64,000 nt of DNA, taken from assembly GCA_030390025.1 (NCBI GenBank), contig CM059432.1, positions 7,998,001-8,062,000 of the forward strand, written 5' to 3'. How positions within the stretch are numbered: position 1 is the first letter of the stretch; each line of letters starts with the position of its first letter. The translations under genes and the position numbers were made by a program. The stretch comes from Squalus acanthias (Eukaryota). Shown in pieces: positions 6,710 through 63,468 of the stretch. Under the pieces are notes generated by a model. It saw nothing but the letters and a program-made list of their open reading frames with translations, had not been told where the DNA came from and did not search any database.

Positions 6710-9700
6710 TTGACTTGGACGTGGGTGTACAGGGCACAACTTCAAAATTTGCAGGTGACACAAAACTTGGATGTATAGTGAACAGTGAGGAGAATAGTGA
6801 TAGACTTCAAGAGGACATAAAGAATTTGAGTATAAGAGTAAAGACGTCTTACTGCAATTATATAGGGCCCTGGTGAGACCACACCTGGAGTATTGTGTAC
6901 AATTTTGGTCTCCTTACCTGAGGAAGGATATACTTGCCATAGAGGGAGTGTAACGAACGTTCACCAGACTGGTTCCTTGGATGGGGGATTGTCCTATGAG
7001 GAGAGATTGAGGAGACTAGATCTATATTCTCTCGCATTGAGAAGAATGAGAGGTGATCTCATTGAAACATACAAAATTCTTACAGGGCTTGACAGGGTAG
7101 ATGTAGGGAGGATCTTTCCCCTGGCTGAGGAGTCTAGAACTCGTGTCTCAGAATAAGGGGTCGGCTGTTTAGGACTGAGATGAGGAGAAATTTCTTCACT
7201 CAGAGGGTGGTGAATCTTTGGAATTCTCTGCCCCAGAGGGTTGTGGAGGCTCAGTCATTGAGTAGATTGATAGACTTTTGGATATTAAGGGAATCAAGGG
7301 ATATGGGGATAGTGCACCAAAATGGAGTTGAGGTCGAAGATCAGCCATGATCTTATTGAATGGCGGAAATAAAGAAACATAGAAGATAGGAGCAGGAGTA
7401 GGCCATTCGGCCCCTCGAGCCTGCTCCGCCATTCGATGAGATCATGGCTGATCATCCAAACTCAGTACCCTGTACCTGCCTTCTCCCCATATCCCTTGAT
7501 ACCTTTAGCTTTAAGAAATATATCTAACTCATTCTTGAATATATTTAATGACTTGGCCTCAACTACCTTCTGTGGTAGAGAATTCCACAGGTTCACCACT
7601 CCCTGGGTGAAGAAATTCCTCCTCATTTCTGTCCTTCAGCGACTGGTGCACAAGGACACCCAGGTCTCGTTGCACTTCCCCTTCTCCCAATCTATTGTCA
7701 TTCAGGTCTGGACAAACGAGCAGGCTCGAGGGACCGAATGGCCGACTCCTGCTCTTATTTCTTATGTTCTTATGGTGGAATAGGCGGACACGTGGCAGAT
7801 GAAATTTAATGCAGAAACGTGCAAAGTGATAAATTTTGGTAGGAAGAAGGAGGAGGCAATATAAAGTAAAGGGTACAAATCTAAAGGGGCTGCATGAACA
7901 GAGAGACCTGGGGGTATATGTGCACAAATCGTTGAAGGTGGCAGGGCAGGTTGAGATAGTGATTAAAAAAGCATACGGGATCCTGGGCTTCATGAATAGA
8001 GGCATAGGCTGCGATTTTGCCTACCGAGGTGGGTCTGGTGCAGCCAGGGTCGGTGGTGGGGTATGACCCCGCTGCTGGCTCCAGCCCGCTCTGTGAAATG
8101 ATTTTACGCTGATTGGGCTTGTTAAGCCCACCCAGCGCGATTCCCAGCCAATTGAAGGAAGCGGGTCTGATGACGTCATTTGATGGCACATCATCAGCCG
8201 GTTTCCTTAAAGGGACCATGCGCAAATTGATTTTGACATTTGTGCTGTCGGTGTTCTACAGCATTGAGGAGCTGCAAACACTGACAAGCACTTCACAGAG
8301 GTGCACGGCTGCACCCAGGCTCTCCCATGACTCCCTCCATATGCTTATGGAGGGAGTCACAGCACACAGGGAGATCCTCTTCCCTTCCCATGGGCGGAAG
8401 AGACCTTCCCATGAGATCTCAGTAGATCACGAAATGTTACTGCAAAGCCACACTCAACCTCATCCTGCTGTGCCACTCATCACATCCCCATCACTCTGCC
8501 TTCCCTACCCTACTCCTGCACATCCTTACTCACACCAACTTACCTTGCACCTCCACCCATCCCTCTCCATCTACATTATCACTTCCCCATCTCACTAGCC
8601 ACCCCTCACACTCACCCTCATCCTAGTCCAATCATACCAACTAACAACACACAAGGGTAGGCACTTGGGTGTTTTAGCCAATGCTCATGTGAAGTTTCTG
8701 TTAATGTGGTGTCAAACATTGAAATCTTTATTTTCAACACTTCGCGTTCTTGGACAGATTTGTGTGCACCTTCGGAAGTGGTTTAGTGAGTTGAAGTGAA
8801 TGGTGAGATATAACGGTACCCCCAGCAATGGCGACGAGTGTAAAAGGAATGGCTTAGGCATTGTAGGGATGCTTTATGGTGTTGGTGTGGGGTGGTGCCA
8901 ACCTGGCACATCACGTCGCAGCCAGGGTGTACAGTGTCAAGTGAAGTAAATCTGGCCATGGTGATTCCATCCCTGACCTCCCGGGCAGCAATGTGGTCAG
9001 GTGCTGATGCCCTGTGTCCTGCGCAGCATCAGGGTGATAGCGGAGAAGTTTGGTGTGGATGTTGGTGCTGCTGGTGTTGGGGCTGATAGTGGTGGGATTC
9101 TGAGGACCAAGGTGAGATATTTTCAAGGGCACCGATGCTGATGGAATAGATGGCAGGTGAGGTTGAGATGACAGAAGCGATCTGTCAATGGTGAGAAAGG
9201 TTGTTCCAATGGATTTTCACTGGATAGAGAGTTTGCTCCAAACACTTGCAAGCTGCATAAAGCTCAATCTGTCTTTCAAATGCAGTAAGCAACAGCTTCT
9301 AACTTTGGTTCCCTACCCGCTGTCAAAAAAATTTTTTTCCCCAGCTGACTCGCCACCAAACGCTCCCGCTGACCCCCTGAAAAATTCTCCCATAGAGTAC
9401 AAAAGTAAGGAAGTTATGATGAGCCTTTATAAAATACTTGTCCGACCCCAACTGGAGTATTGTGTCCAGTTCTGGGCACCGCACTTTATGAAGGATTTGA
9501 AGGCCTTAGAGAGGGTGCAGAAAAGATTTACAAAAATGGTTCCAGGGATGAGGAACTTCATAAGATCATAAGACGTAGGAGCAGGAGTAGGTCATTTGGC
9601 CCTCGAGCCTGCTCTGCCATTCAATAAGATCATGGCCGATTCAGTTACGTGGATAGACTGGAGAAGCTGTGGGGTTGTTCTCCTTAGAGCAGAGAAGTTT

Positions 9701-10090: not shown

Positions 10091-10507
10091 TAATAAGAAA
10101 TAGGAGCAGGAGTAGGCCATTCGGCTCCTTGAGCCATTGCATGTCAAGGGGCGGTGGTTAGACTTTCTCTTGCTGGAGCTGGTCATTGCCTGGCACTTGT
10201 GTGGCGCAAATGTTACCTGCCACTTATCAGCCCAAGCCTGAATGTTGTCCCGGTCTTGCTGCAGTCGGTACGGACTGCTTCATTATCTGAGGAGTTGCGA
10301 ATGGCACTGAACACTGTGCAATCAGAAGCGAACATCCCCACTTTTGACCTTATGATGGAGGGAAGGTCATTGATGAAGCAGCTGAAGATGGTTGGGCCTT
10401 GGAGACTGCCCTGAGAAACTCCTGCAGCGATGTCCTGGGGCTGAGATGATTGGCCTGCAAGTTAACAACCACAACAATTTTCGCTTGAAATGAGAGCCAG
10501 GCCACTC

Positions 10508-12190
10508 AGGAGAGAAGAGGATCTGGTAAGAGGGAGGAGCTGAGGGAAATCCTTATTAGTCGGGAAAAGGTATTGGGGAAATTGATGGGACTGAAGGCTG
10601 AAAAATCCCCGGGGCCTGATGGACTGCATCCCAGAGTACTTAAGGAGGTGGCCTTGGAAATAGTGGATGCATTGACGATCATTTTCCAACATTCCTTAGA
10701 CTCTGGATCAGTTCCGATGGAGTGGAGGGTGGCCAATGTAACCCCTCTTTTTAAAAAAGGAGGGAGGGAGAAAGCAGGGAATTATAGACCGGTCAGCCTG
10801 ACATCGGTCGTGGGTAAAATGATGGAAGCAATTATTAAAGATGTCATAACAGACCATTTGGAAAGTGGCGACATGATAGGTCCAAGTCAGCATGGATTTG
10901 TGAAAGGGAAATCATGCTTGACAAATCTTCTGGAATTTTTTGAGGATGTTTCCAATAGGGTGGACAGGGGGGAACAAGTAGATGTGGTGTATTTGGACTT
11001 TCAGAAGGCCTTCGACAAGGTCCCACACAAGAGATTGGTGAGCAAAGTTAAAGCACATGGGATTGGGGGTAATGTGTTGACGTGGATTGAGAACTGGTTG
11101 GCACACAGGAAACAAAGAGTAGGAGTAAATGGGTACTTTTCAGAATGGCAGGCAGTGACCAGCGGGGTACCGCAGGGTTCGGTGCTGGGACCCCAGCTGT
11201 TTACATTATATATTAATGATTTGGACGAAGGGATTAAATGTAATATCTCCAAATTTGCGGATGACACTAAATTGGGAGGCAGTGTGAACAATGAGGAGGA
11301 TGCTAGGAGGATACAGAGTGACTTGGACAGGTTGGGTGAATGGGCAAATGTATGGCAGATGAAGTACAATGTGGATAAATGTGAGGTTATCCACTTTGGT
11401 GGTAAAAATACAGAGGCGGACTATTACCTGAATGGTGGCAGATTAGGGAAAGGGGACGTGCAACGAGACCTGGGCGTCATGGTACATCAGTCACTGAAGG
11501 TGGGAATGCAAGTGCAGCAGGCAGTCAAGAAAGCAAACGGAATGATGGCCTTCATAGCAAGGGGATTTGAGTACAGGAGTAGGGAGGTGATGCTACAGTT
11601 GTACAGGGCCTTGGTGAGGCCACACCTGGAGTATTGTGCGCAGTTTTGGTCTCCTAACTTAAGGAAGGACATTCTTGCTATTGAGGGAGTGCAGCGAAGG
11701 TTCACTAGATTGATTCCTGGAATGGCCGGACTGACATATCAAGAAAGATTGGGTCAACTGAACTTGTATCCTCTGGAGTTCAGAAGAATGAGGGGGGATC
11801 TTATAGAGACATTTAAAATCCTGACTGGTTTAGACAAATTAGATGCGGGCAGAATGTTCCCAATGGTAGGGAAAACTAGAACCAGGGGTCACAGTCTAAG
11901 GATTAAGGGGAAGCCATTTAGGACTGAGCTGAGGAGGAACTTCTTCACCCAGAGAGTGGTGAATCTATGGAATTCTCTTCCACAGAAGGTTGTTGAGGCC
12001 AGTTCGCTAAATATATTCAAAAGGGAGTTAGATATAACACTCACAACTAAGGGGATCAAGGGGTATGGCGAGAAAGCAGGAATGGGGTACTGAGGTAGCA
12101 TGTTCAGCCATGAACGCATTGAATGGCGGTGCAGGCTCGAAGGACCGAATGGTCTACTCCTGTACCTATTTTCTATGTTTCTATGTTTCT
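10508..12190 (+). mobile_element. 5'-truncated young CR1 LINE
   Basis: Uninterrupted ORF2 frame, 3' UTR hairpin region, tail TTTCTATGTTTCTATGTTTCT. Confidence 0.95.
10573..12093 (+). CDS. CR1 ORF2 reverse transcriptase domain (5'-truncated, no endonuclease)
   Basis: 506 aa with [61 protein letters not shown]. Confidence 0.9.
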   Translation: MGKLMGLKAEKSPGPDGLHPRVLKEVALEIVDALTIIFQHSLDSGSVPMEWRVANVTPLFKKGGREKAGNYRPVSLTSVVGKMMEAIIKDVITDHLESGDMIGPSQHGFVKGKSCLTNLLEFFEDVSNRVDRGEQVDVVYLDFQKAFDKVPHKRLVSKVKAHGIGGNVLTWIENWLAHRKQRVGVNGYFSEWQAVTSGVPQGSVLGPQLFTLYINDLDEGIKCNISKFADDTKLGGSVNNEEDARRIQSDLDRLGEWANVWQMKYNVDKCEVIHFGGKNTEADYYLNGGRLGKGDVQRDLGVMVHQSLKVGMQVQQAVKKANGMMAFIARGFEYRSREVMLQLYRALVRPHLEYCAQFWSPNLRKDILAIEGVQRRFTRLIPGMAGLTYQERLGQLNLYPLEFRRMRGDLIETFKILTGLDKLDAGRMFPMVGKTRTRGHSLRIKGKPFRTELRRNFFTQRVVNLWNSLPQKVVEASSLNIFKRELDITLTTKGIKGYGEKAGMGY

Positions 12191-16604: not shown

Positions 16605-17475
16605 CCAACGCGCTTTACAACCAATGAAGTGCGTTTTGAAGTGTAGTCACTGTTGCAATGTAGGAAACGCGGCTGCCAATTTGCACACAGCAAGCTCCCA
16701 CAAACAGCAATGCGATAATGACCACATAATCTGTTTTAGTGATGTTGGTTGAGGGATAAATATTGGCCAGGACTCCCCTGCTCTTCTTCGAATAGTGCTG
16801 TTGCATCTTTTACGTCCACCTGAGAGAGCAGACAGGGCCTCGGTTTAACATCTCATCTGAAAGACCGCACCTCCGACACTGTGGCACTCCCTCAGCACTG
16901 TGCTGGAGCATCAGGCTGCATTATGTGTTCAAGTCTCTGGAGTGGGATTTAATTTCTGGAGGAGAACACTTAACTTTTTTCTCCTGATAATAACAAACCT
17001 CTTCCTCATTTACAGCCAAGCACAGGGAATCGGAGTTGACTGCATTGACTCTCCTTCCATGCAGTCTGAACCTGTGCTTACTTGAGCATCTAATCTAGGC
17101 TGACACTCGGTACAACTGAGGGAGTGCTGCACTGTCGGAGGTACCGTCTTTCGGATGAGACGTTAAACCGAGGCCCCATCTGCTCTCTCAGGTGGACGTA
17201 AAAGATCCCAGGGCCACTATTTCGAAGAAGAGCAGGGGAGTTCTCCCCGGTGTCCTGGGCCAATATTTATCCCTCAACCAACATCACTGAAACAGATTAT
17301 CTGGTCATTATCACATTGCTGCTTGTGGGAGCTTGCTGTGCGCAAATTGGCTGCTGTGTTTCCCACATTACAACAGTGACTACACTTCAAAAAGTACTTC
17401 ATTGGCTGCAAAGCGCTTTGGGAAGTCCTGAGGTCGTGAAAGGCGCTATAGAAACGCAAGACTTTCTTTCTTGCC
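16605..17475. mobile_element. Two Deu-domain tRNA-SINE copies (16605-16930 minus; ~17090-17475 plus)
   Basis: Match the full copy at 44441-44880 (GGATGAGACGTTAAACCGAGG...AAAAGATCCC...GAAGAGCAGGGGAGTTCTCCC). Confidence 0.75.
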
Positions 17476-17489
17476 TTTTTTTCTCTGAA

Positions 17490-17600
17490 GGGTGATCTTC
17501 AGCCCCAAATAGAACGATCTTCCTCTGCTGCATCTCCTGCAGCAGGACCTCCAACTCTTCAGCATAAAAGGGAGCAGCATTGTTCATATGTCTTCATGCT
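17490..17600 (-). pseudogene. Relic of a Harbinger Myb/SANT N-terminus
   Basis: AAPFYAEELEVLLQEMQQRKIVLFG resembles the (R)..F...ELE.L...V..R..VLFG start of Myb/SANT-like trihelix domains. Confidence 0.5.
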
Positions 17601-23819: not shown

Positions 23820-24588
23820 GGGCTGGATTTTGTCTTGGGGTCGGGTTGGGGTCGTGTTAGCCGACATTTCGTGTTGCCCCCCCCCCGACTCCAGATTAAT
23901 GTGGATGAATGATGCAATTTTCAGTTAATTGCCGAATTGAGTTCCAGCATGTGGGAACCCATGAACCAATTAGTGGTTTCAGTCTGAAAGTCACCTCTGA
24001 TGATGTCATCATTGCAGGTCAGAGACTGACTGCCTGGTCTCAGAGACTGCCTGGCTTTTGGTGTGAGAGGACCTGGATGCAAAATGCGCAGCAGCTCTAA
24101 GGACAGAGAGAGAGAGAGAGAAGGAATTTTTTTTGCATCCAGGTCCTCTCACAGCAAAGGCCAGGCAGTCTCTGAAGACATTCAATGCAGCAGCATCAGA
24201 GGCGACTTTCAGACCTAATACTACTACTACCTTCATCACATCTCGGTTGTAATAGTGGACCTGCAGCCGATAGTCAGCTGTCCACTTGTGCTCCCGCCAG
24301 GTTTCACTGGCGTGTTTCACATCAGGCGTACTTCATGTCGGAAAAGGGTTAAACTAGCTAAAACGTTTCAAAGTGGCATTACAGAGCCAATTTAGGGATA
24401 GTTAAGAGCATGATTGGCCTCTCGTGCCTCTTGGAGGCGGGACGGAGTCGGGAACCCCGCGACCCATTTTGTCAAAATTGCGTGGAGGCGTGTTGGAGTC
24501 GGGATGGGGTCGGGGACCCTCGAATCTGCAACTTTAACCCCCCACACACCTCCAAACCTGACTCCACGGGTCATTGAAAATCCAGCCC
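23820..24588. mobile_element. Harbinger MITE related to the 58209-63995 family
   Basis: Perfect 12-bp TIR GGGCTGGATTTT/AAAATCCAGCCC; ends resemble 240-430 and 63700-63995; flanks TAA/ATA do not match. Confidence 0.8.
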
Positions 24589-25760: not shown

Positions 25761-25990
25761 TTGGAAGCAATGGCAACAGCCAGTCCTGGAAGTAGTAGGG
25801 CTCCATGGTTTTCCGATTGGTCCCTGGAGATCTTGTTGGAGCCAGCAAAGTCCCGTTCTCTGCCAATGCGCACCATAATCTCAAGATCAACCGCTCGGGC
25901 AGTGCGACAGGCGATGGACAGTAACATAATTGCAGCAGATGTGTCGAGGTTGGCGACCCATCTTGACTTCATAATACTGATTGATGTGAG
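25761..25990 (+). pseudogene. Decayed Myb/SANT-like relic
   Basis: RAPWFSDWSLEILLEPAKSR...AVRQA...IAADVS resembles the RAPRFSD..LE.L start of Harbinger Myb proteins. Confidence 0.45.
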
Positions 25991-26028: not shown

Positions 26029-26917
26029 GGGGGAGAAATTCGGTATCGCCCCGTTTGGGGCGCAATTATCGGCCGGGCGTAAAGTTTAGCGCCTGGCACT
26101 AATTATCGCTTCTGACTGCAAACTTGGCTTCTATTGCCCCTGGAGGTGATTGGAGCGCTAAATCAGGTGCTACACACCTCTCTTAAGGCGCTAACACCGA
26201 GGAGTGAGGCGCTACCTCAGAGCGCTGGCGAAGCTCATGTGATGTCAGTCAGCAATGGAACACAGACACACTGGCGCCGGCCAGTTCTTAAAGAGGAGGG
26301 TCGATCTTGTTCTCCATTCATACCCTGCTCATTGCAGCCTTGAATCTCGGCCTGGAGAGACCTGTACATCAAATCTGCTGGAAAGAACAATGGAGAGGCC
26401 CAGGGAAAGAGCTCAGAGTGCAGCCCCCACAGTCTCCTCTAAATCGATACAAGGAAGGGCAAATCAAAATGAACCTGCAAAGTGCTGCTCAGTACCCAAA
26501 ACTCCTTCACACAGCGTTGAATCTCTCCAGAAGTCTCTCTCTCTCTCTCTCTCAGAATGCGTGATGCAAAAATGTCGCCGACAAAAAAAAAGGCAGGAAG
26601 CGGTCGCCTTTAAATAGCGCTCCCCCAGTCCCTTCCCGACTGCAAAACGCTCCCCTCAACCTGTCGTTGCTAGCGGCAGGCGGTAAGGCAGGGGGGGCCA
26701 CTCAATATCCAGTCCGGGGCGCTACCGGGGCGTTGCATGCTCGACTGACATCACGATCTGCGGGCGCAGGAGATCGTGGGGGCAGTGTTTAGCGCCACCG
26801 CAAAATGTCTGGTCCATTTCGCGAGCGAGTCAAACATCGCCGCGCCCGGGCGCTAGTTGCTTTGCGCCCCATTAGCGCCCTCTAACGGGAGGCGCAAAGC
26901 AACCGAATTTTTCCCCC
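26029..26917. mobile_element. GC-rich Harbinger-type MITE (~890 bp)
   Basis: TIR GGGGGAGAAATTCGGT/ACCGAATTTTTCCCCC; colinear with 36475-37367; internal MERPRERA remnant. Confidence 0.85.
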
Positions 26918-29267: not shown

Positions 29268-30405
29268 CATAGAATCATAGAAATTTATGGCACAGAAGGA
29301 GGCCATTCGGCCCACCGTGTTTGTGCCGGCCAAAAAAGAGCTATCCGGCCTAATCCCACTTTCCAGCTCTTGGTCCGTAGCCCTGGAGGTTACGGCACTT
29401 CAAGTGCACATCCAAGTACTTTTTAAATGCGATGAGGGTTTCTGCCTCTACCACCCTTTCAGGCAGCGAGTTCCAGACCCCCACCACCCTCTGGGTGAAA
29501 AAAGTTCTCCTCAACTCCCCTCTAATCCTTCTACCAACTGCTTTAAATCTCTGCCCCCTGGTATTGACCTCTCTGCTAAGGGAAATAGGTCCTTCCTATC
29601 CACTCTATCTCGGCCCCTCATAATTTTATACACCTCAATTAAGTCTCCCCTCAGCCTCCTCTGTTCCAAAGAAAACAACCCCAGCCTAGCCAATCTTTCC
29701 TCATAGCTAAAATTCTCCAGTCCTGGCAACATCCTTATATATCTCCTCTGTACCCTCTCAAGTGCAATCACATCTTTCCTGTAGTGTGGTGACCAGAACT
29801 GTGCACAGTACTCTAGCTGTGGCCTAACTAGTGTTTTATACAGCTCAAGAATAACCTCCCTGCTCTTATATTCTACGCCTCAGCTAATAAAGGAAAATAT
29901 CCCATATGCCTTCTTAACCACCTTATCTACCTGTCCTGCTATCTTCAGGGATCTGTGGACATGCACACCAAGATCCCTCTGATCCTCTGCATTTCTCAGT
30001 GTCCTACCATTTATTGTCTATTCCCTTGCCTTGTTAGCCTTTTCCAAATGCATTACCTCGCACTTAGGGATGGGCAATAAATGCTGGCCTTGCCAGCGAC
30101 GCCCAGATCCCATAAGCAAATTAAAAAAAAATTCTCCGGATTGAATTCCATTTGTCACTTTTCTGGCCACCTGACCAGTCCATTGATATCTTCCTGCAGT
30201 CTACAGCTTTCTTCATCACTATCAACCACACAGCCAATTTTAGTATCATCTGCAAACTTCTTAATCATGCCCCCTACATTAAAGTCTAAATCATTGATAT
30301 ATACCGCAAAAAGCAAGGGACCTAGTACTGAGCCCTGCGGAACCTCACTGGAACAGCCTTCCAGTCACAAAAACACGCGTCGACCATTACCCTTTGTTTC
30401 CTGCC
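29268..30405 (-). mobile_element. CR1 LINE fragments (minus), with a short family-B tail inserted near 30065-30130
   Basis: [55 protein letters not shown] sequence near 30320-30345. Confidence 0.85.
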
Positions 30406-30437
30406 ATCGGCTTGAAACCTTAACTCTGTTTCTCTCT

Positions 30438-31338
30438 CTCCACAGAGACTGTCTGACCCACTGGGTGTATCTCCACAGAGACTGTCTGACCCACTGGGTG
30501 TATCTCCACAGAGACTGTCTGACCCACTGGGTGTATCTCCACAGAGACTGTCTGACCCACTGGGTGTATCTCCGCAGAGACTGTCTGACCCACTGGGTCT
30601 ATCTCCACAGAGACTGTCTGACCCACTGGGTGTATCTCCACAGAGACTGTCTGACCCACTGGGTGTATCTCCACAGAGACTGTCTGACCCACTGGGTGTA
30701 TCTCCACAGAGACTGTCTGACCCACTGGGTGTATCTCCACAGAGACTGCCTGACTCACTGGGTGTATCTCCACAGAAACTGTCTGACCCACTGGGTGTAT
30801 CTCCACAGAGACTGTCTGACCCACTGGGTGTATCTCCACAGAGACTGCCTGACTCACTGGGTGTATCTCTCCACAGAGACTGTCTGACCCACTGGGAGTA
30901 TCTCCACAGAGACTGTCTGACCCACTGGGTGTATCTCTCCACAGAGACTGTCTGACCCACTGGGTGTATCTCCACAGAGACTGTCTGACCCACTGGGCGT
31001 ATCTCCACAGAGACTGTCTGACCCACTGGGTGTATCTCCACAGAGACTGACTGACCCACTGGGTGTATCTCCACAGAGACTGTCTGACCCACTGGGTGTA
31101 TCTCCACAGAGACTGTCTGACCCACTGGGTGTATCTCCGCAGAGACTGTCTGACCCACTGGGTGTATCTCCACAGAGACTGTCTGACCCACTGGGTGTAT
31201 CTCCACAGAGACTGTCTGACCCACTGGGTGTATCTCCGCAGAGACTGTCTGACCCACTGGGTGTATCTCCACAGAGACTGTCTGACCCACTGGGTGTATC
31301 TCCACAGAGACTGTCTGACCCACTGGGTGTATCTCCAC
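30438..31338. repeat. 33-bp minisatellite, about 27 copies (CTCCACAGAGACTGTCTGACCCACTGGGTGTAT)
   Basis: Head-to-tail near-identical units, no spacers; two units carry an extra CT. Confidence 0.95.
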
Positions 31339-33679
31339 ACTTTTTTGAGTTCAGTTTTCCAGCATCCGCAGCCATTTTTTGCTTTTTGAGCTAAGCTGAC
31401 TCCCCTGTCAGGTTGTATCCTTGGAATTCCACAGCAGTGGGAATGGTTTATGTCGTGAAAACATCCGTACCTCAGAAAAAATATTCTCCCAGGCTGCCTT
31501 TCAGCTTACTGACGGCCAGTATTTTAGCCGGGGAACGGCGAGCTCCGTGCCAGCTGCAAACTTTGTCAAATTTCAAGCCCAGACGTTGTTTTTCTCTTTC
31601 CCACCTTAACCTAATTAAAGCTCTTCTCAGAGAAACCAATTATTTTTAAATCACGGCATCTGTAGCAGTTTTGCCAAATCTTTTAATTCATTATCAGCTT
31701 CCCCCGAGGTTTTTCGCCCCCATCCTGAAACTGCTCAAGTGCTTGCTGATCTTCTATCCGCCCCTCGCAGACCGAGATTAGTTCTGATTAGTGTCAGCCG
31801 TGGCTCAGTTGGCCATTCTCTCGCCGCTGAGGTCAGAGGTTGTGGACACCTGAAAACACAGATTTAGATAATTGGCAAAAGATAAAACCCGGTGGGGAGT
31901 GGGGGGGGAGATGAGGTCATTTTTTTTTTACGCAGCGAGTTGTTGTGATCTGGAACGCGCTGCCTGAAAGGGCGGTGGAAGCAGATTCAATAGTGAGTTT
32001 CAAAAGGGAATCGGATAAATACTTGAAAAGGAAAATTTAGCAGGGCTGTGGGGAAAGAGCAGGAAAGTGGGACTAATTGGAGAGCTCTTTCAAAGAACCA
32101 GCACAGGCACGATGGGCCGAATGGCCTCCTTCTGTGCAGTAAGATTCTAGTTTGCTTCTTTCTATACTGTTTAAGACTTTGCAAAATATAACGCCTTTCA
32201 TTACCTCAGGACGCCCCAAAGCGCCTTCTAGCCAATGAAGTACTTTTTGAAGTGTAGTCACTGTTGCAATGTAGGAAACACGGCAGCCAATAATTAAAGT
32301 CTAATAATTATCAGCGTAATTACACTTTTAACGTCATGATATTTGTTAATGACTGCCAATCCACCTCTCTTGCCCCAAAAGTAATCAATTATAAGTATGG
32401 AGTCTACTTCCTACAGGTTGTAAACTTGAGGTGATCCAAAACTCGGCTGCCCGTGTCCTAACTCGCACCAAGTCCCGTTCACCCATCACCCCACTGTGCT
32501 CGCTGACCTACATTGGCTCCCGGTAAAGCAACACCTCGATTTTAAAATTCTCAACCTTGTTTTCAAATCCCTCCATGGCCTCGCCTCTCCCTATCTCTGT
32601 AATCTCCTTCAACCCCACAACCCCCCGAGATATCTGCACTCCTCTAATTCTGCCCTCTTGAGCTTCCCTGATTATAATCGCTCAACCATTGGCGGCCGTG
32701 TCTTCAGCTGCCAAGGCCCTAAGCTCTGGAATTCCCTCCCTAACCCTCTCCGCCTCTCTACCTCTCTTTCCTCCTTTAAGACGCTCCTTAAAACCGACCT
32801 CTTTGACCCAGCTTTTGGTCACCTGCCCTAATATCTCCTTCTTTGGCTCGGTGTCAAATTTTGTTTGATAATCGCTCCTGTGAAGCACCTTGGGACGTTT
32901 TACTACGCTAAAGGCGCTATATAAATACAAGTTGTTGTTGTTGTTGTGAATTGTTTTTAGGAGAGTTAAAAAATGTCAATATTTGTATTTCTGTACCTGA
33001 TTTGACTAATTCACCCTCTTTCCTTCTCCGTCATTCCTCTGTTTCTTTCTCAATCCTAAAATCTCATTGGTTAAGGAGATCCGCTGCTGGCCCTGTCGTT
33101 CACCAAGGTCCCAGATGCCCTGATGCCCTCGCAACTTTGTGGGCAAAACGTTTAAAACCTATACGTACAATTGTAATTTGTGACCTACGGGGCAGGCTGT
33201 GAGATGTCCCGCTCCAGCAAAATCTGGCTCCGTGTGTATCTGACAATATTATTTTGTTTTTAACTGTGAACTCACTGTTACTTCTAAACTTATATTATTC
33301 TCTTGTCACATCCACCAGATGCTGGTAATGACACCTCATTGTAAAATGAGCAACTCAATCAGAAGAACCACAAATAACAATGGTGAAATAGCAATTTACT
33401 TGCACTTCTATCAACTTAATAAACTGCAACAACAACATCTTGCATTCATATAGCACCTTTAATGTAGTAAAACGTCCCAAGGCGCTTCACAGGTGCAATT
33501 ATCAAACAAAATTTGACACCCAGCCACATAAGGAGAAATTAGGGCAGGTGACCAAAAGCTTGGTCAAAGAGGTAGATTTTAAGGAGCGTCTTAAAGGAGG
33601 AAAGAGAGGCGGAGAGGTTTAGGCAGGGAATTCAGAGCTTAGGGCCCAGGCAGCTGAAGGCAGGGCCGCCAATGGTAGG

Positions 33680-36474: not shown

Positions 36475-37367
36475 GGGGGAGAAATTCAGTATCGCCCCAT
36501 TTGGAGTGCAATTATCGGCCGGGCGCAAAGATTAGCACCTGGCGCTAATTATTGCCTCCGACTGCAAACTTGACTTTTATCGCCCCTGGAGGTGATTGGA
36601 GCGCTAAATCAGGCGCTACACACCTGTCTTAAGGTGCAAAGGCCGAGCAGCGAGGCGCTACCTCAGAGCGCTGGCGAAGCTCATGTGATGTCAGTCAGCA
36701 ATGGAACACAGACACAATGGCGCCAGACAGTTCTTAAAGGGAAGGGTTGATCTTGCTCTCCATCCACATCCTGCTCATTGCAGCCTTGAATCTCGGCCTG
36801 GAGAGACCTGTACATCAAATCTGCTGGAAAGAACAATGCAGAGGCCCAGGGAAAGAGCTCAGAGTGCAGCCCCCACAGTCTCTTCTAAATCGATACAAGG
36901 AAGGGCAAATCAAAATGAACCTGCAAAGGGCTGCTCAGTACCCAAAACTCCTTCACACAGCATTGAATCTCTCCAGAAGTCTCTTTCTCTCTCTCTCAGA
37001 ATGCGTGGTTCAAAAATGTCACCAACAATAAAAGGCAGGAAGCGGTCACCTTTAAATAGCGCTCCCCCAGTCCCTTCCTGACTGCAAAACGCTCCCCTCA
37101 ACCTGTCGTTGCTAGCGTCAGGCGGTAAGGCAGGGGGCGCCACTCAATATCCGCTCCGGGGCGATACCGGGGCGTTGCGCACTCGACTGACGTCACGATC
37201 TGCCAGTGCAGGAGATCGTGGCGGTAGTGTTTAGCGCCGCCGCAAAATGTCTAGTTAATTTCACGAGCGGCGCAAACTTCGCCGCGCCTGGGCGCTAGTT
37301 GCTTTGCGCCCCATTAGCGCCCTCTTAAGGCGCTAACGGGAGGCGCAACCAACTGAATTTTTCCCCC
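36475..37367. mobile_element. GC-rich Harbinger-type MITE, TSD ATT
   Basis: TIR GGGGGAGAAATTCAGT/ACTGAATTTTTCCCCC; ATT at 36472-36474 and 37368-37370. Confidence 0.85.
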
Positions 37368-40419: not shown

Positions 40420-42700
40420 TTCCCTAGATTCTAGAATGGTCCCAGCGGATTGGAAGGTAGCAAATGTAACATCGCTATTCAAGAAAGGAGGGAGAGAGAA
40501 AACAGGGATCTACAGGCCAGTTAGCCTGACATCTCTCGTTGGGAAAATGCTGGAATCCATTGTTGAGGAAGTGGTATCAGGGCACTTAGAAAATCATAAC
40601 ATGATTAGGCAGAGTCAACATGGTTTTATGAAAGGGAAATCATGTTTGACAAATGTATTAGTTTTTTGAGGATGTAACTAGCAGGGTAGATAAAGGGGAA
40701 CCAGTGGATGTAGTATATTTGGATTTCCAAAAGGCATTCAATAAGTTGCCACATAAAAGGCTATTACACAAGATTAGGGCTCATGGGGTTGGGGGTAATA
40801 TAATAGCATGGATAGAGGATTGGTTAACGGACAGAAAACAGAGAGTAGAGATAAAAGGATCTTTTTCAGATTGGCAGGCTGTAACTAGTGGGGTGCCGCA
40901 AGGATCAGTGTTGGGGCCTCAGCTATTTACAATCTATATTAATGACCTAGATGAAGGGACCGAGTGTAATGTATCCAAGTTTGCTTATGATACAAAGCTA
41001 GGTGGGACAGTAAGCCGTGAGGAGAACACAAAGGGGGAGAAATTCCCCTCCTTTGCGCCTCCCGTGGGGGGCGCTAACGGGGCGCAAAGGCCTTTTCGCC
41101 CGTGCGCGGCACTGACCTCGCCACCTGCCAAATTCGGCGGGAGGTTAGCGGCGACGCTACGAGTTTGCGCCACGATCTCCTGCGCCCGGAGATCATGACG
41201 TCATCTCCGGGCGCATCACCCCGGTAGCGCCCCGGCACAAACATTCCCCTTCGCCCCCTGCAGCAGCGCCGGGCGATGGCAGCGAGTGCTGCAGGGGACA
41301 CGAGCAGGGCAGCCGGCCGCTAGCGGGGCGCCATTTTATGGTGAGGTGGCCGGCCGCCCTGAAAAAATGTCTGATTTTAAAAAAAACTATTTTTTTTGTA
41401 CTTCCGGACGCGGGGTCCGTGCCGCGATCGGTCAGCCCGGCACTCTGCTTGAGTGCCGGACTGATCGCGTGGCACCCCCGCTCCCCGGTGGTCCAGGTAA
41501 GTTTTTAAAAAACTGCAAGAGTTCGCAGGTTGGGGCCCTTCCCTTTAATTCAGGGAAGAGCCCCAGCAACGATTCAGCGCTATGTGTCCCCAGTGCATGG
41601 CGCTGCTGAGCTGTGCGCCCCAGGTCATGAACCTTCCCCCCTCTTGCACTCCAAGAAGGACGTGGAGCACTTGATTTGGTGCTCCACCTCCCCCATGGAG
41701 CAATAACTGGGAATTTCAGAGAGGCCGGAAGAGGTGAGCACCTGGCGCCAAATTTTCCAGCTTTTCTGGTTTAGCGCCCCCAACAGGGCTCGAGGGGAAT
41801 TTCTAGCCCAAAGAGTCTGCCAAGGGATATAGATAGACTCAGTGAGTGGGCAGTAAGGTGGCAGATGGAGTATAATGTAGGGAAATGTGAGGTTACTCAC
41901 TTTGGTAGGAAGAATAGAAAAACAGAATACTTTTTAAATGGTGAGAAACTTTCAAATGTTGGTGTTCAGAGAGATTTGGGTGTCCTCGTGCAAGAAACAC
42001 AGAAAGCTAGAATGCAGGTACAGCAAGCAATAAGGAAGGCAAATGGCATGTTGGCTTTTATTGCAAAGGGGGTTGGAGTATAAGAGTGAGGAAGTCTTGC
42101 TACAATTATACAGGGCCTTGGTGAGACCACACCTGGAGTACTGTGCACAGTTTTGGTCTCCTTATCTAAGGAAAGATATACTTGCCTTGGAGGCGGTACA
42201 ACAAAGGTTCACTAGATTGATTCCTGGGATGAGAGGGCTGTCCTATGATGAGAGATTGTGTAGAATGGGCCTATACTCTCTGGAGTTTAGAAGAATGAGA
42301 GGTGATCTAATTGAAACATGCAAGATTCTGAAGGGGATTGACAGGGTAGATGTTGAGAGGTTGTTTCCCCTGGGCTGGAGAGTCTAGAACTAGGGGGCAT
42401 AGTCTCAGGATAAGGGGTAGGCCATTTCAGACTGAGATGAGGAGGAATTTCTTCACTCAGACGGTTGTGAATCTTTGGAATTCTCTGCCCCAGAGGGCTG
42501 TGGATGCTGAGTCATTGAGTATATTCAAGGCTGAGATAGATAGATTTTTGGACTCATGGGGAATCAAGGGATATGGAGACCGAGCGGGAAAGTGGAGTTG
42601 AGGTCGATGATCAGCCATGATCTTATTGAATGGCGGAGCAGGCTCGAGGGGCCGTATGGCCTACTCCTGCTCCTAATTGTTATGTTCTTATGTTCTTATC
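40420..42700 (+). mobile_element. CR1 LINE (RT to tail), frameshifted, split by a MITE
   Basis: [34 protein letters not shown]; tail TTATGTTCTTATGTTCTTAT. Confidence 0.9.
41033..41809. mobile_element. Harbinger-type MITE, TSD AAA
   Basis: TIR GGGGGAGAAATTCCCCTC/GAGGGGAATTTCTAGCCC; AAA at 41030-41032 and 41810-41812; host CR1 rejoins. Confidence 0.9.
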
Positions 42701-48980: not shown

Positions 48981-49633
48981 GGGCGAAAAATTGAGTTAAC
49001 TTCGCCAGGGCGCTACTTTTAGCGCCCCGGAAAAATTAGCGCCCCCGCGACCGAAATTGAGTGGTAGCGCCCCAAGAGGGAAGCGGGGCGCCGCGGTATT
49101 GCAGGCCTTCCACCCCTTCTTAAAGGGAAGGGGCCTTGCGCAGCACGACACGGGGCCCAGCTGGGCAAAAGAGCCCGGCACTAAAGAGAAGTTCCGGGTT
49201 CATGGAGTGCAGCCGGCACTCTGCGGGGGGGCAAGTAAGGAGGCCGGGGACGGGAGTGGAGGCAGGTGCTGGAAGGCGGCCAGCAACAAAAATGGCCGCT
49301 CGGCACCTCGCCTTTAAATAGCGCTGCCCCGGCTGCAGGTAGGCCCCCCTGACCCCGTCAGACATAGCGTCCGGTGGTAAGTCAGGGGGCGCTACTGAAG
49401 ATCACGGCCGTGGCGCGAGCGGGGCGCGCGCGGGGCGCTGCGCACGACAATGACGTCATCGCCAGCAGCGCAGCGCCGCGGGGCGCTAACGGTTAGCGCT
49501 GCCGCTAACCTCCCACTGAATTTCGCAGGGAGGCGTTGGCGGTGCCGCGCTCGGGCGCTCGTTGCTTTGCGCCCCTCGTTCGTGCCCTAAGAGGGCGGTA
49601 CCGGGAGGCGCAAAGCAACCAAATTTTTCCCCC
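48981..49633. mobile_element. GC-rich Harbinger-type MITE, TSD TTT
   Basis: GGGCGAAAAATTG...CAAATTTTTCCCCC; TTT on both sides; right half matches 1-230; sits in a CR1 3' end. Confidence 0.85.
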
Positions 49634-50214
49634 TTTACATTTACTTGAAAAGGAAAGAAATTTGCAGGGCTATGGGGAAAGAGCAGGGGAGTGGGACTAA
49701 TTGGAGAGCTCTACCAAAGAGCCGGCACAGGCACGATGGGCCGAATGGCCTCCTTCTGTGCTGTGGGATTCTCTGCTAGATTCCAGCATCTTCCCCACAA
49801 TTGAATCACCTTCTTCTTGACAAACGCGTAGCTTAGCTAAGGCGCAATCCAGACATTGGCAACAGACTCACAGTCAAGTCACTCCGAATACAGAAAGCAC
49901 CTGTTAGTTACATCGATGTAGCATCTGATCATAAATGTAGCAAATTTCTATACTTACCAGATGTTGCACAATTTCCTGCCTGAATCCTGCAAGTTTGTAT
50001 AGAAGTCCTGGAGGCAAAGCCTGGCTTTCTGGCCACATCCGAGCAATAACAAATCACTTGCACTGGCAATTTAATTCAGTGGAGCGACTAATCTAGGGGC
50101 AGGAGGTGCAATATGCTTCTTTTATTAAAAACAAAATGGGAACATCACAAACTTGTATCAGGGACATAATTAACAACAAACTAACCTAATCTCATGACAG
50201 ATAGAAAGTGCAGA

Positions 50215-57835: not shown

Positions 57836-59284
57836 CTCCTACATTACAACAGTGACTACACTTCAAGAGTACTTCATTGGCTTTGGGATGTCCTGAGGTC
57901 ATGAAAGGCGCTATATAATTCTTTCTTTCTTTCTTTCTTTCATTCTTTCTTTCTTGTTACCTAGCCAATATTTATCCCTCGACCAACATGACAAAAACAG
58001 ATTATCTGGTCATTATCACATTGCTGTTTGTGGGAGCTTGCTGTGCGCAAATTGGCTGCCGTGTTTCCCACATTACAACAGTGACCACACTTCAAAAAAT
58101 ACTTCATTGGCTGTAAGGCACTTTGAGATGTCCGGTGGTCATGAAAGGCGCTGTAGAAATACAAGTCTTTCTTTCTGTCTTCTTTCTATATTTCCTCTTA
58201 GATCTTATGGGCTGGATTTTGTCAGTGTGGGTGGGCTGGGGCATGTCAGGTGGGATTCATGTCAGGACCCCGACTCCTAACTGAAGTGTTGAAAAATTGC
58301 GATTTTCCCCTAATTGGGCAATTGATTTCCTGCGTGTGGGAACCACTGGCCCAATGAGTCTTTTCATACAGAAAGTCGCCTCCGATGACGTCATCAATGC
58401 TGTTGGATTTAAGGCCTGCAAGCAGCCTTGATTCTTCTGGAGACTGGAAACGCTTTGGACATTGTATGAAGGACTTCATTTACCGACCATGTCCACGATC
58501 AAGCAAAAGTGTGCACCTCGCTTTGATGAGCCCTCCCTCCAAGCTCTGGTGCAGGGAGCAAGATCTAATAAGGAGGTGCTCTTCCCTTCCTCAGGGGGAA
58601 AAAAAGCCACCACAACAGACTAAAGCTGTGTGGCTGCAAGTGGCCCAGGAGGCCAATGCCATCTCTATGTGACGCAGAACCTGGCTGCAGTGCAGGAAGA
58701 GGTTTCAAGACCTTCTCCGCACAGGAAAAGTGAGTATGACTTGCCAATCACCCTCAATCTGATCCCCATCGCCTCTCCTCACCAGCACTCAGCTTTGCCA
58801 ACATCTTCCTCCACATCCCACTTGACACTGACATCCCTGCACCCTTACCCATTCTCTCTCTCTCTCTATGGTCACATTCACTTAACTATTCGACCATGCA
58901 GCCCTCACACTCCCTATCACTGTGACGCAATGACAGCAACTTACAACACACGGGAAGGGCCCTTTGTCTCCTTCTAAGCATCTATGCTATGGATTCTTTA
59001 CACTCACTCCTTCATTCTCACTCAAACTCCACTTGTATCCCTCATTGCAGGAAAAGAGAGCCCACAATAAGTGGGAAAGAGTGAGGACAGGAGGAGGGCC
59101 ACCCTCAGTAGCCCAGCTCACCACCTCGGAGGAGGCGGCCCTGGAAATTGCCGGGATTGAGGAGGATTCCCAAGTGGGGGACGGACAGGCGGGCGCATCA
59201 CAGCAAGCTGGTGACAGAATAGTTTGGCATCTCTCTCATTGACATTGCATGAGTGACTGATAATGATTCTGATGCTCGAACAGA

Positions 59285-62032
59285 TTGACTTATGATCATC
59301 TGCACAATTCAATGTGCATGCAACCTTTACCTCACATCTCTAACTCTTTCCTTCACTCCCCCACAGGACCATCGAGAGCCCCCGTCCCCACTGTCCAGGA
59401 GGAAGAGCCTGAGCTTCCAGACTCCTCAGAGGAAGCTGCAACCTCTGAGGACACTCCGTCAGCAGAATTAAGTGCACCCAGCACCAGCGCAGAAACTCAC
59501 ACCTCGGTGGGACCTTTGGGACACAGAGTAGAGTTGTCACCTGGTGTATCACAGCTCACAAGTGAGCATCAGCAGATGGTGGAGACAGGGACAGCAGTGG
59601 AGAGTCCTCGTCGCATTGGAGAAGATGCTCTCAGCTCGGCTCCGCTTCATGTCGACCCTGTGCCTCCGGGTCCATCCAGAAGAAGAGCAGTGCTGGAACT
59701 CCAGGAAGAGGTGCAGGAGTCTCTGGCAGGTTTTGTCTCCAGGGTCGCTGCGAGTGGGCAAGCAACCTTAGATCTGGTCCTGTGTAACGAGACAGGATTA
59801 ATTAAAAATGTCCTAGTAAAGGATCCCCTTGGAATGAGTGACCATAACATGGTTGAATTCCATATTCAATTAGAGGGTGAGAAGGTTGGATCTCAAACAA
59901 GCGTGCTAAGCTTGAATAAAGGAGACTATGAAGGTATGCGAGCGGAATTGAGTAGAGTGGATTGGGAAAATAGATTAAAGGGTAAGACGACACATGATCA
60001 GTGGTGTACATTCAAGGAGTTATTTTACAACTTCCAAAAAATATATATTCCACTGAAAAGAAAAGGGTGTAAAAGAAAGGACAGTCATCCGTGGCTAAGT
60101 AAAGAAATTAAGGATAGTATTCGACTAAAAACAAGGGCATATAAGGTAGCGAAATCTAGTGGGAGGACAGAGGATTGGGAAAACTTTAAAAGGCAGCAAA
60201 AAATAACAAAAAGATTGATTAAGAAAGGGAAGATAGATTATGAAAGTAAATTAGCAAAAAATATAAAAACAGATAGTAAGAGTTTTTATAGTTATATAAA
60301 AAGAAAAAGGGTGGCTAAAGTAAATGTTGGTCCCTTAGAGGATGAGACCGGGAAATTAATGGTGGGAAATATGGAGATGGCAAAAACACTGAATGAATAT
60401 TTTGTATCAGTCTTTACAGTAGAGGACACTAAGAATATCCCAACACTGGACAAACAGGGGGCTATAGGGGGAGAGGAGCTAAACACGATCAAAATCACTA
60501 AGGAAGTGGTACTCGGTAAAATAATGGGACTCAAGGCGGATAAATCACCTGGACCTGATGGCTTACATCCTAGAGTCTTGAAGGAAGTGGCGGTAGGGAT
60601 TGTAGATGCATTGGTAATAATTTTTCAAAACTCCCTGGATTCCGCTCAGGTCCTGGCAGACTGGAAAACTGCTAATGTAACACCCTTATTTAAAAAGGGC
60701 AGTAGACAGAAGGCTGGTAACTATAGACCGGTTAGCCTAACATCTGTGGTAGGTAAAATTTTGGAGTCCATTATTAAGGGAACAGTAACAGGACATTTGG
60801 ATAATCATAATTTAATAGGACAAAGTCAGCATGGTTTTACGAAGGGGAAGTCATGTTTGACAAATTTGCTGGAGTTCTTTGAGGAAGTAACATATAGAGT
60901 GGATAAAGGGGAACCAGTGGACGTAGTGTATTTAGACTTCCAAAAGGCATTTGACAAGGTGCCACACAAACGATTATTGCTTAAGGTAAAAAATCACGGG
61001 ATTGGGGGTAATATTCTGGCATGGATAGAGGATTGGCTATCTAACAGAAAGCAAAGAGTTGGGATAAATGGTTCATTCTCAGACTGGCAATCAGTAACTA
61101 GTGGTGTTCCACAGGGGTCAGTGCTGGGTCCCCAACTCTTTACAATCTATATTAACGATTTGGAGGAAGGGACCAAGTGTAACATATCAACATTTGCAGA
61201 TGATACTAAGATGGGAGGGAAAGTAGTGAGTGAGGAGGACATAAAAAACCTGCAAGGGGACATAGACAGGCTAAGTAAGTGGGCAGAGATTTGGCAGATG
61301 GAATACAACACTGGAAAGTGTGAGGTGATGCACTTTGGCAGGAAAAATCCTAGAGCAATTTATTATCTTAATGGCAAGAAACTGGAGAGTACTGAAGTGC
61401 AAAGGGATCTGGGGGTCCTGGTGCACGAAACTCAAAAGGTTAGTATGCAGGTGCAGCAAGTGATTAAGAAGGCAAATGGAATGTTGGCTTTCATTGCTAG
61501 GGGGATAGAATATAAAAATAGGGAGGTATTGCTTCAGTTGTACAAGGTATTGGTGAGACCGCACCTGGAATACTGCATACAGTTTTGGTGTCCTTACTTA
61601 AGGAAAGACATCCTTGCTCTCGAGGCAGTGCAAAAAAGGTTCACTCGGTTAATCCCGGGGATGAGGGGGTGGTCATATGAGGAGAGGTTGGGTAGATTGG
61701 GACTCTACTCATTGGAGTTCAGAAGAATGAGAGGCGATCTTATTGAAACATATAAGATTGTGAAGGGGTTGGATCGGGTGGATGCGGGGAGGATGTTCCC
61801 GATGACGGGTGAGACTAGAACTAGGGGACATAGTCTTAGAATAAGGGGCTGCTCTTTCAAAACTGAGATGAGGAGGAACTACTTCACTCAGAGGGTGGTA
61901 GGTCCATGGAATATGCTGCCACAAAAAGCTGTAGAAGCTACATCATTAAATAAATTTAAAACAGAAATAGACAGTTTCCTAGAAGTAAAGGGCATTAAGG
62001 GTTACGGGGAGCGGGCAGGAATTTGGACATGA
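59285..62032 (+). CDS. Chimeric ORF: Harbinger Myb exon 3 fused in frame to CR1 ORF2 reverse transcriptase
   Basis: 915-codon frame without stops; first ~150 aa are intron/Myb exon 3, the rest CR1 ORF2. Expression not shown. Confidence 0.55.
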   Translation: MTYDHLHNSMCMQPLPHISNSFLHSPTGPSRAPVPTVQEEEPELPDSSEEAATSEDTPSAELSAPSTSAETHTSVGPLGHRVELSPGVSQLTSEHQQMVETGTAVESPRRIGEDALSSAPLHVDPVPPGPSRRRAVLELQEEVQESLAGFVSRVAASGQATLDLVLCNETGLIKNVLVKDPLGMSDHNMVEFHIQLEGEKVGSQTSVLSLNKGDYEGMRAELSRVDWENRLKGKTTHDQWCTFKELFYNFQKIYIPLKRKGCKRKDSHPWLSKEIKDSIRLKTRAYKVAKSSGRTEDWENFKRQQKITKRLIKKGKIDYESKLAKNIKTDSKSFYSYIKRKRVAKVNVGPLEDETGKLMVGNMEMAKTLNEYFVSVFTVEDTKNIPTLDKQGAIGGEELNTIKITKEVVLGKIMGLKADKSPGPDGLHPRVLKEVAVGIVDALVIIFQNSLDSAQVLADWKTANVTPLFKKGSRQKAGNYRPVSLTSVVGKILESIIKGTVTGHLDNHNLIGQSQHGFTKGKSCLTNLLEFFEEVTYRVDKGEPVDVVYLDFQKAFDKVPHKRLLLKVKNHGIGGNILAWIEDWLSNRKQRVGINGSFSDWQSVTSGVPQGSVLGPQLFTIYINDLEEGTKCNISTFADDTKMGGKVVSEEDIKNLQGDIDRLSKWAEIWQMEYNTGKCEVMHFGRKNPRAIYYLNGKKLESTEVQRDLGVLVHETQKVSMQVQQVIKKANGMLAFIARGIEYKNREVLLQLYKVLVRPHLEYCIQFWCPYLRKDILALEAVQKRFTRLIPGMRGWSYEERLGRLGLYSLEFRRMRGDLIETYKIVKGLDRVDAGRMFPMTGETRTRGHSLRIRGCSFKTEMRRNYFTQRVVGPWNMLPQKAVEATSLNKFKTEIDSFLEVKGIKGYGERAGIWT

Positions 62033-62270
62033 GTCTAGGTTCGGATCGGTCATGGCCCTGTGGGTAGTGGAGCGGGCCCAGGGACCGTGTAGCCTGATTC
62101 TGCTCCTATTTCGTGTGTGCAATTCTGTTAGATGCAGGAGATGGTTCTGTGATAGATAGTAGATTGGCGGTTAGGATCAGATCAGCCATGATCTTATTGA
62201 ATGGCGGAGCAGGCTCGAGGGGCCGATTGGCCTACTCCTGCTCCTATTTCTTATGTTCTTATGTTCTTAT
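59742..62270 (+). mobile_element. 5'-truncated young CR1 LINE with uninterrupted ORF2 (endonuclease C-terminal part plus RT)
   Basis: LDLVL, SDH (APE C-terminus), full RT motifs to stop at 62032; tail TTATGTTCTTATGTTCTTAT. Confidence 0.95.
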
Positions 62271-62338
62271 GAATGGAGGAGTCCATCGCTAACATGAGCA
62301 GAGCCTTTATGGAGGCATTGGCGCATGAATGCATCACC

Positions 62339-62443
62339 ATGGAAAGGATGGCAACCTCCTTGGAAAGGATGGCTACCTCCATGGTAAGGCTGGCTACCAT
62401 AGAGGAGAGGATGGTTACGGTAGAGGAGAGGATGGCTACATCC
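62339..62443 (+). repeat. 5 x 21-bp tandem repeat encoding heptads (MERMATS-like)
   Basis: ATGGAAAGGATGGCAACCTCC / TTGGAAAGGATGGCTACCTCC / ATGGTAAGGCTGGCTACCATA / GAGGAGAGGATGGTTACGGTA / GAGGAGAGGATGGCTACATCC. Confidence 0.85.
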
Positions 62444-63241
62444 ATGGAGGAGCTTAGTCGCCAGGGTATGGAAAACATGGTAATTGTTCAGAATAGACTG
62501 ACATCTCTTGAGGAGCGATGGTCAGCTATTGAGCAAACAAACCAGACCTTCATGCAAGTCCTCTGGAGTAGGACTTCCAGTGCAGAAACGGGTCCTCATG
62601 CACCCCCTGCAGTGCAGCAAGGTGCTGTCCAGCCACTTGCTAGCTCTGAAGTGGGGCTGACCCATGAGAGGGATGTTGGTGGCATACAACAAGGAAGTGG
62701 GGGCTCCTCTCCAAGTCCTCACACGACCATGCCACTGCAGAGCCCTCGGTCAGAGTCCCACCAGAGTCCCCACCCAACTGAGATCGGCATCCCAACCGCT
62801 GCCCATCCGCAGGAGCAGCAGACTGTTGCCAAGCCCTCACAGGTTCGCAACCCCAGAGGACACCCGCCAAAGGTGTCGAGACAGGAGCAGCAAGAAAGTG
62901 AGCAAGGGGCCTCCACATCTGCTGAAGCCACAGGGGAAGCACCACGTAGGAGCACGCGTAAGAGGAAGATAATGCACAAGTAGTCACAAGGGTAGTCACT
63001 TGGGTGTAATGTTGTGTTTAATTTCGAAAAGCCATCAGTTGCTTATTGTCATAAAAAATTCTGATGGCAAACTGTTGCAGTTGTGGTGTGTGTTCTTTCG
63101 CTAATGGGACTTCCATATTGAGGGCTTAGGGCGACTTGCAATTGTCAGTATGGTGGTCAGAGTGATAGGAATCCGCACGTTCGTGGCCATTGTCGATGGT
63201 CTGATAAGAAGGTGCGAGGCAAAAGTGTTTGATTGTGCAGG

Positions 63242-63468
63242 CTAAGCAAATCTGGCCAACATGAGTGCGTCCCTTGCATCCCGGGCAGCAATATGGTCGC
63301 GCGCTGACGCCTTCTGGCCTGTGCAGCTTCAGGTGGGTGAGCAGCAGCTTGGCGCTCCTGTTGTTGCTGCTGCTGTTCGTGGTGCTGTTGTTCATGGTTC
63401 TGCTGCTGCCATGGCTGGTCTTCGTCCGAATCTGATGTCCAGGAGGAAAGGAAATAAATGGTTCCCAT
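63242..63468 (-). pseudogene. Collapsed Harbinger (HARBI1-like) transposase: N-terminus joined out of frame to C-terminus, no DDE core
   Basis: MGTIYFLSSWTSDSDEDQPWQQQ...ARRRQR then DHIAARDARDALMLARFA* (63298-63242); convergent to the Myb gene, where Harbinger nucleases lie. Confidence 0.6.

Follow-up and report, generated by a model that had tools for sequence, protein, structure and literature searches.

We report a deletion scar in the transposase gene that is common, to the base, to two Harbinger-type transposon copies (A and B) of a known kind, both within a 64-kb window of the Squalus acanthias genome (the window is the whole stretch of DNA analysed). Harbingers need two proteins, and elements with the DNA-binding half alone test how transposon parasites persist. 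This helper-only arrangement has already been published, in the available parts of the respective papers, for sea kraits and Caenorhabditis inopinata; new here is one scar found in two families whose Myb genes differ strongly. Should it have spread by recombination, the scar would cleanly mark exchange between Harbinger families, termed rare in a fish survey; if vertical descent with a selected Myb holds true, the helper-only lineage would be much older than the published ones. The initial annotation had proposed an old Myb-only lineage, a proposal partly contradicted by the dead Myb genes and an unalignable spacer.

Self-comparison of the window, which is crowded with CR1-type LINE fragments, identified three related Myb-bearing elements and a MITE with B-type ends. 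The closest named relatives of their Myb genes were shark and ray proteins. Positions are those of the window.

240-1597, no strand: copy C, a truncated B-like element (83% to the left part of B, BLASTN)
8007-9391, no strand: copy A, a 1.4-kb non-autonomous Harbinger-type element inside a CR1 LINE
23820-24588, no strand: non-coding MITE with B-type ends (70-72% to both B ends)
58209-63995, no strand: copy B, a Harbinger-type element, ~3.3 kb without its CR1 insert

Copy B, with terminal inverted repeats identical at 15/17 positions and unequal flanking triplets, was annotated as follows.

58489-62983, plus strand: three-exon Myb/SANT gene, dead (PF13873 match, Heptranchias collinearity)
59757-62271, plus strand: 5'-truncated CR1 LINE in Myb exon 3 (edges approximate; repeats common to other CR1s)
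63242-63468, minus strand: collapsed transposase remnant of 227 nt, junction at 63301/63300

The Myb exons lie at 58489-58729, 59051-~59215, and 59372-~59756 plus 62272-62983. The gene matched PF13873 above the cut-off (E 9e-6, 26.0 bits) and was collinear over all three exons with a Heptranchias protein (P0014 / XP_067827223.1). Its lesions are a +1 frameshift (58594-58606), a stop (58670-58672), and the CR1, which is read in frame from Myb exon 3 as a 919-aa, reverse-transcriptase-like, stop-to-stop frame. Also in exon 3 (62310-62440), a 21-nt repeat encodes a heptad, coiled-coil-like stretch. The transposase remnant consists of 56 N-terminal codons (63468-63301) fused out of frame to a final 59 nt.

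Copy C, 93% alike to B 63436-63615, retains Myb exons 1 and 2 (PF13873 E 3e-7, 30.8 bits). A deletion through a 13-nt microhomology (1418-1430) begins in Myb exon 3, ends at transposase codon 11, and took out most of exon 3 and the whole junction region. A +1 frameshift in a G/A run of Myb exon 1 is common to B (58594-58606) and C (626-638); the run is 13 nt long in both, and the reading frame of relatives requires 12. This may reflect common descent, two separate slippage events, or recoding. Restoration of the frame by splicing of a 46-nt intron was dismissed because conserved Myb residues would be lost with it.

Copy A has a 3-bp target duplication, ATA (8004-8006 / 9392-9394), inside a 5-nt repeat that makes TAG or CAT equally possible, and degenerate terminal repeats. 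Its flanks rejoin as CR1 coding sequence (69-75% to other CR1 copies). Three parts were recognised.

8290-8433, plus strand: Myb exon 1 remnant (first helix only), with an internal deletion and a frameshift
8440-8675, plus strand: Myb intron 1 remnant fused to post-stop sequence (8-nt microhomology near 8649-8656)
8941-9125, minus strand: collapsed transposase remnant, junction at 9001/9000 (position transferred from B)

In tBLASTn, Myb proteins of sharks and rays matched the exon 1 remnant (best E 3e-7), which had no Pfam match. Exons 2 and 3 were lost via the 8-nt microhomology deletion, most of the Myb domain is missing, and 8650-8672 is a 23-nt match to B 62985-63007. Intron 1 of A aligned to B at 67% and to C at 74%.

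The flank strings quoted in the initial annotation were found at both loci on the minus strand, and its gapless alignment of A and B across the junction held (89-nt core, 69 identical, 20 differences). BLASTN aligned A 8944-9078 with B 63244-63377 at 74% (E ~1e-17), the junction gave a local score of 94 (maximum 32 in 500 shuffles), and the whole remnants were identical at 116/156 positions (z 22.7 with stricter scoring). When the two sides of the join were scored apart over 13 offsets, each matched best at offset 0, with 26/33 on the N side and 43/54 on the C side; A and B are therefore joined in one register to the base, unless indels compensate each other. A 20-nt core motif occurred twice in the window, against 0.01 expected. 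The two Myb N-termini are both present and strongly different, as had been claimed (43-50% identical over 30 codons). Searches for the junction motif returned none in viral contigs and five loci in metagenome contigs, none of which (0/5) resembled the window outside the motif; these five were dropped as chance matches. A search of the open literature returned no shark Harbinger paper with a shared collapse junction, with subscription journals, Repbase and bioRxiv supplements outside the scope of that search.

The join is a real deletion scar, not contiguous sequence. Contigs of four out of 24 sequencing runs (X4 and X16 from organism D, X1 from organism A, and X21; X16 is taken as RNA by guess only) were aligned to 62450-64000 at 80% likeness. 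X1, X4 and X16 covered 30/30 bins of the B family, and X21 was uninformative (86 reads aligned, 93% running on unlike). Of the 24 runs, 15 contained half or more of the words sampled from B (best 0.71; five organism labels and two unlabelled), and from these 15 the contigs of X1 and X4 were aligned. Loose ends start exactly at 63301 in 24 contigs of X4 and 32 of X1, contig counts that are not copy numbers. They extend B's N-terminal frame on the minus strand as MEARRRRRYP, and the consensuses of the two runs differ at a single, synonymous site. Five consecutive arginines occurred in 21/200000 random 30-mers of equal composition. With a median loose length of 14 letters, these contigs may stem from intact elements or from other derivatives. 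The aligned runs thus contain B-like N-termini (80% alike or more) that are not collapsed. Contigs also crossed the join in 3/4 runs, one of them (record 22) reaching from 63201 to 63336, and a variant at 63293 sits 41-44 letters from contig ends; with two organisms represented, the collapsed form was thus amplified, and in more than one organism. On the N side, then, the deletion put forward in the initial annotation is borne out, with its breakpoint at 63301 and an in-frame, arginine-rich continuation.

That nothing was deleted, with the segment either contiguous in complete elements or unrelated to a transposase, is highly improbable. It would account for the failure of either flank to match any database protein, and for the count of zero C-side loose ends among the 24 of 1345 rows listed. 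It leaves unaccounted for the loose ends that carry five arginines in frame from one base in two runs, the near-complete agreement of those runs, and the position of the segment opposite a Myb gene, the expected place of a transposase. Coelacanth Harbinger transposases likewise carry arginine-rich runs ahead of the core (PMC9179366 supplement, searched part); MEARRRRRYP itself was absent from that part.

The final 59 nt are the putative transposase C-terminus, judging from their position, their stop codon and the short helix of this type in which such proteins end. Full-length transposases were sought with the N-terminal frame (124 candidates, none at E<=10) and the C-terminal frames (52 candidates, no matches), both weak tests. 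An Atlas search with the B-family N-terminus gave no usable match, the remnant flanks had no Pfam match, and the 64-kb window held no uncollapsed continuation of the N-terminal frame and, in a motif scan of all six frames, no catalytic motifs. The missing core was also considered as an intron and this was dismissed, as neither strand shows GT..AG at the ends and DNA runs contain the join. In X1, other derivatives join Myb exon 3 to just past B's N-side breakpoint (62636 to 63301 and 62638 to 63310), and more joints connect 63129/63130 to 63474/63477 (among 15 of 43 joints listed).

Identity between A and B varied along the element: left arm, 62-64%; Myb exon 1, 60-67%; intron 1, 67-74% (inflated by its pyrimidine-rich composition); remnant, 74%; transposase 5' region, 66%; right end, 64%. 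The spacer between the stop codons was unalignable between A and B (z -0.2), and along the junction diagonal the matches fall past the stop from 12/15 to 5, 3, 1, 4 and 3 of 15. Over 29 Myb residues, A matched B at 13, C at 15, and three shark or ray proteins at 13, 13 and 17 (3/6 database proteins were in register; P0002, P0005 and P0006 were off register and left out). Both results speak against the single vertical lineage claimed for A and B: the Myb of A is no nearer to that of B than to other shark and ray Mybs, and a supposedly neutral remnant outconserves the arms, Myb exon 1 and the neighbouring spacer.

The remnant itself differs by ~20% in a neutral-like manner (N side, pS 0.30 and pN 0.26; C side, 0.15 and 0.17, with B-family majority letters), and C-side differences fall 3/3/3 on the codon positions (majority letters), with no third-position excess. 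Its synonymous differences number 4-5/20, against ~0.45 in Myb exon 1 (binomial p 0.02-0.06), a paucity that would point to more recent shared ancestry in the remnant. The core had 20/89 differences, against 36/90 (p 0.015) or 31/90 (p 0.10) in Myb exon 1, p-values that are biased because the core block was chosen as the best match. All of these lineage tests rest on one A copy and small counts. A single origin of the junction is nevertheless probable, and likelier than two. The single loss of the core claimed in the initial annotation is probable to that extent; the old Myb-only lineage attached to it is unsupported.

None of the three Myb genes in the window is intact, nor is either of the two in junction-bearing copies (A and B). 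Copy A lacks exons 2 and 3 and most of the Myb domain. The picture of a lineage diversifying with a working Myb gene finds no support in these copies. Between B and C, 132 Myb codons gave pS 0.28, pN 0.09 and dN/dS 0.28 (p 2e-5), and CpG decay was excluded as the cause of the synonymous excess, the signal persisting without CpG sites. The Myb gene was therefore under past purifying selection in the B/C family. The deletion in C removed the junction region, so this selection is not assignable to junction-bearing masters; the check for purifying selection proposed in the initial annotation came out positive for the family and is not tied to the copies with the junction.

The selection signal lies on both sides of the frameshift common to B and C (dN/dS 0.33 before, 0.14 after); with selected-looking differences on either side, the +1 shift might be read through by recoding. 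B-C pN equals the divergence of the introns and the transposase 5' region (0.08), and pS is three times higher. The Myb introns and transposase 5' region of B and C are 7-9% apart (58730-59370 vs 762-1393), their synonymous sites 23%, and their left arms 20%. Across 30 Myb codons, A against B/C gave dN/dS of 0.63-0.71, not significant. In B Myb exon 3, 11/13 listed majority differences were non-synonymous (40 of 494 rows listed overall), as expected of a neutral branch (p 0.006 against dN/dS 0.3); any inserted copy decays so. No indel rows fell in this exon among the 12 of 24 listed. Close relatives of the B-family Myb protein were sought among 3 candidates with no match, and an Atlas search with B Myb exon 3 gave leads under 0.9 only. 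Four ray species contribute members to the 90% cluster of the Myb-like protein P0009, which might be a Harbinger Myb gene that became domesticated.

We tentatively favour, at somewhat short of an even chance, one deletion whose junction then passed between two families by recombination. A and B would be dead, non-autonomous members of two Harbinger-type families in which the Myb and transposase genes are convergent. Such a transfer would account both for a remnant that outlasted its neighbouring spacer and for its few synonymous changes. An internal deletion in the ancestor of one family would have fused the 56 codons out of frame to the final 59 nt, a step observed on its N side and presumed on its C side. 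The collapsed form, which is abundant, would have kept its ends and been mobilised by transposase supplied in trans on the way to high copy number. The other family may then have gained the junction by recombination or by template switching in gap repair. Both limits of the exchange would fall inside the transposase termini, presumably the stretch of greatest likeness between the families. The outcome would be one origin of the junction, with arms, Myb gene and spacer from different families. The 13-nt and 8-nt microhomology deletions of C and A, respectively, were counted in favour of this explanation. In fish, four non-congruent Myb/transposase pairs were read as recombination, and recombination between Harbinger sublineages was termed rare (PMC9179366, available part). 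Counted against it was the lack of a sharp near-identity block at the junction (bins of 11-12/15 matches). The A family was represented by a single copy, and since intron 1 is conserved like the remnant and B-C rates are equally uneven, rate differences alone could mimic mosaicism.

Two other histories compete with exchange by recombination. Vertical descent, in which one old deletion came first, the collapsed lineage then split to give A and B, and the arms and Myb evolved faster than introns and remnant, is possible, if rather unlikely; in its strong form the Myb gene would also have remained functional all along. It would explain the register kept on both sides, the neutral-like remnant, intron 1 conservation close to that of the remnant, and the junction-spanning contigs in two organisms; the Myb gene of B, full length with just three lesions, the low B-C dN/dS, and exon 3 free of indels among the 12 of 24 indel rows listed also fit. 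Against simple vertical descent, the remnant outlasted the spacer beside it, and likeness stops at the stop codon. The Myb of A is as distant from B's as from those of other families, all three Myb genes are broken (B and C with a common frameshift), the A-B/C comparison was not significant, and the listed exon 3 differences are mostly non-synonymous. Uncollapsed N-termini are also at least 80% like B, and A's N side is 77-79% like B's. Two independent deletions at one conserved microhomology, with the termini kept by selection in autonomous families, seem doubtful. Likeness that ends at the stop codon and recurrent microhomology deletions agree with this, and the X1 joints near the same N-side point (15/43 joints listed) suggest a hot spot. 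Both ends would however need to coincide to the base, and the required microhomology was not seen, the uncollapsed C side not being recovered; ~20% difference with few synonymous changes for a Myb pS of ~0.45 and no third-position excess also argues against separate events.

The fuller version of vertical descent, an old multi-species shark lineage that lost its transposase once, kept a selected Myb gene, and diverged in arms and Myb to family level while living on the transposases of intact relatives, is improbable. Uncollapsed members of their own family would most simply mobilise the collapsed elements in trans, and the nuclease of another family, invoked in the initial annotation, would be unnecessary.

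B and C qualify as PHIS / Harbinger-type by their Myb/SANT genes (PF13873); the Myb of A was recognised by tBLASTn to shark and ray proteins alone. Short terminal inverted repeats are present in B and the MITE, and the pair in A is degenerate. The DDE transposase ORF of an autonomous element is reduced in B to the 227-nt remnant. The TWA target duplication of PIF/Harbinger in the strict sense was not found (A has ATA), and the elements were filed as Harbinger-type (PHIS) without a subgroup on that account. Read as C-ATA-G, the site of A is no exact fit to TWA, CWG or C|TNA|G (PMC4482050, PMC9179366, available parts). Of the traits of solo-ORF variants, the internal transposase deletion, retained ends and multiple copies are present, and an intact Myb ORF is present in 0/2 junction-bearing copies.

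In other systems, as cited in the available parts of PMC13668399 and PMC9179366, the Myb protein binds the element ends and carries the transposase into the nucleus. The Harbinger-Snek solo-ORF variants of sea kraits encode the DNA-binding protein only (452 intact in L. colubrina) and were ascribed to large deletions and considered probably non-autonomous (PMC8437027, available part). Like the elements described here, they are multi-copy, Myb-side-only variants of a vertebrate Harbinger; unlike them, they form one young family with intact Myb ORFs, whereas all three copies here are broken, and the available part of that paper makes no mention of a junction common to diverged families. In C. 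inopinata, MADF-only derivatives (Harbinger-1M_cIno and -2M_cIno) expanded with DDE proposed in trans, and no DDE source exists for a second, older family that bears MADF (PMC13668399, available part). That work demonstrated an insertion that was active, MADF genes that were intact and expressed, and a single DDE locus; the interest here lies in one junction in two families. The available parts of PMC5741667 and PMC9921582 held nothing further on Myb- or MADF-only Harbingers.

The PHIS elements of fish (PIF/Harbinger, NuwaI, NuwaII) likewise pair a Myb/SANT gene with a transposase, and share with ours short terminal inverted repeats starting GG(G), a 3-bp duplication, and a Myb that diverges far more between families than the transposase (PMC4482050, PMC9179366, available parts); unlike them, the copies here have no DDE domain. 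Abundant Harbingers are hereby documented in cartilaginous fish, against the report of none detected in elephant shark by one survey (PMC4482050, PMC9179366, available parts). Shark and ray Myb-like proteins of RefSeq/UniRef, among them XP_067827223.1 (Heptranchias perlo) and XP_067897782.1 (Heterodontus francisci), are just 47-53% identical to the query domain.

Several further features of the window were recorded. Strongly decayed Myb-like exon 1 fragments lie at 17435-17593 (minus strand) and 25779-25877 (plus strand), with weak tBLASTn matches (E 0.04-0.6) and without the junction motif. The terminal inverted repeats of the MITE at 23820-24588 are 12/12 identical, and its flanking triplets are unequal, with no matching target duplication. 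A second, GC-rich MITE-like family has copies 70-85% alike at 21-231, 26838-26917, 37169-37367, 41032-41236 and 49421-49634. Young CR1 copies with long unbroken reverse-transcriptase-like frames occupy 59757-62271 and 10489-12093, and a tandem array of ~36 copies of a 33-nt unit (30294-31488) has long open frames on both strands.
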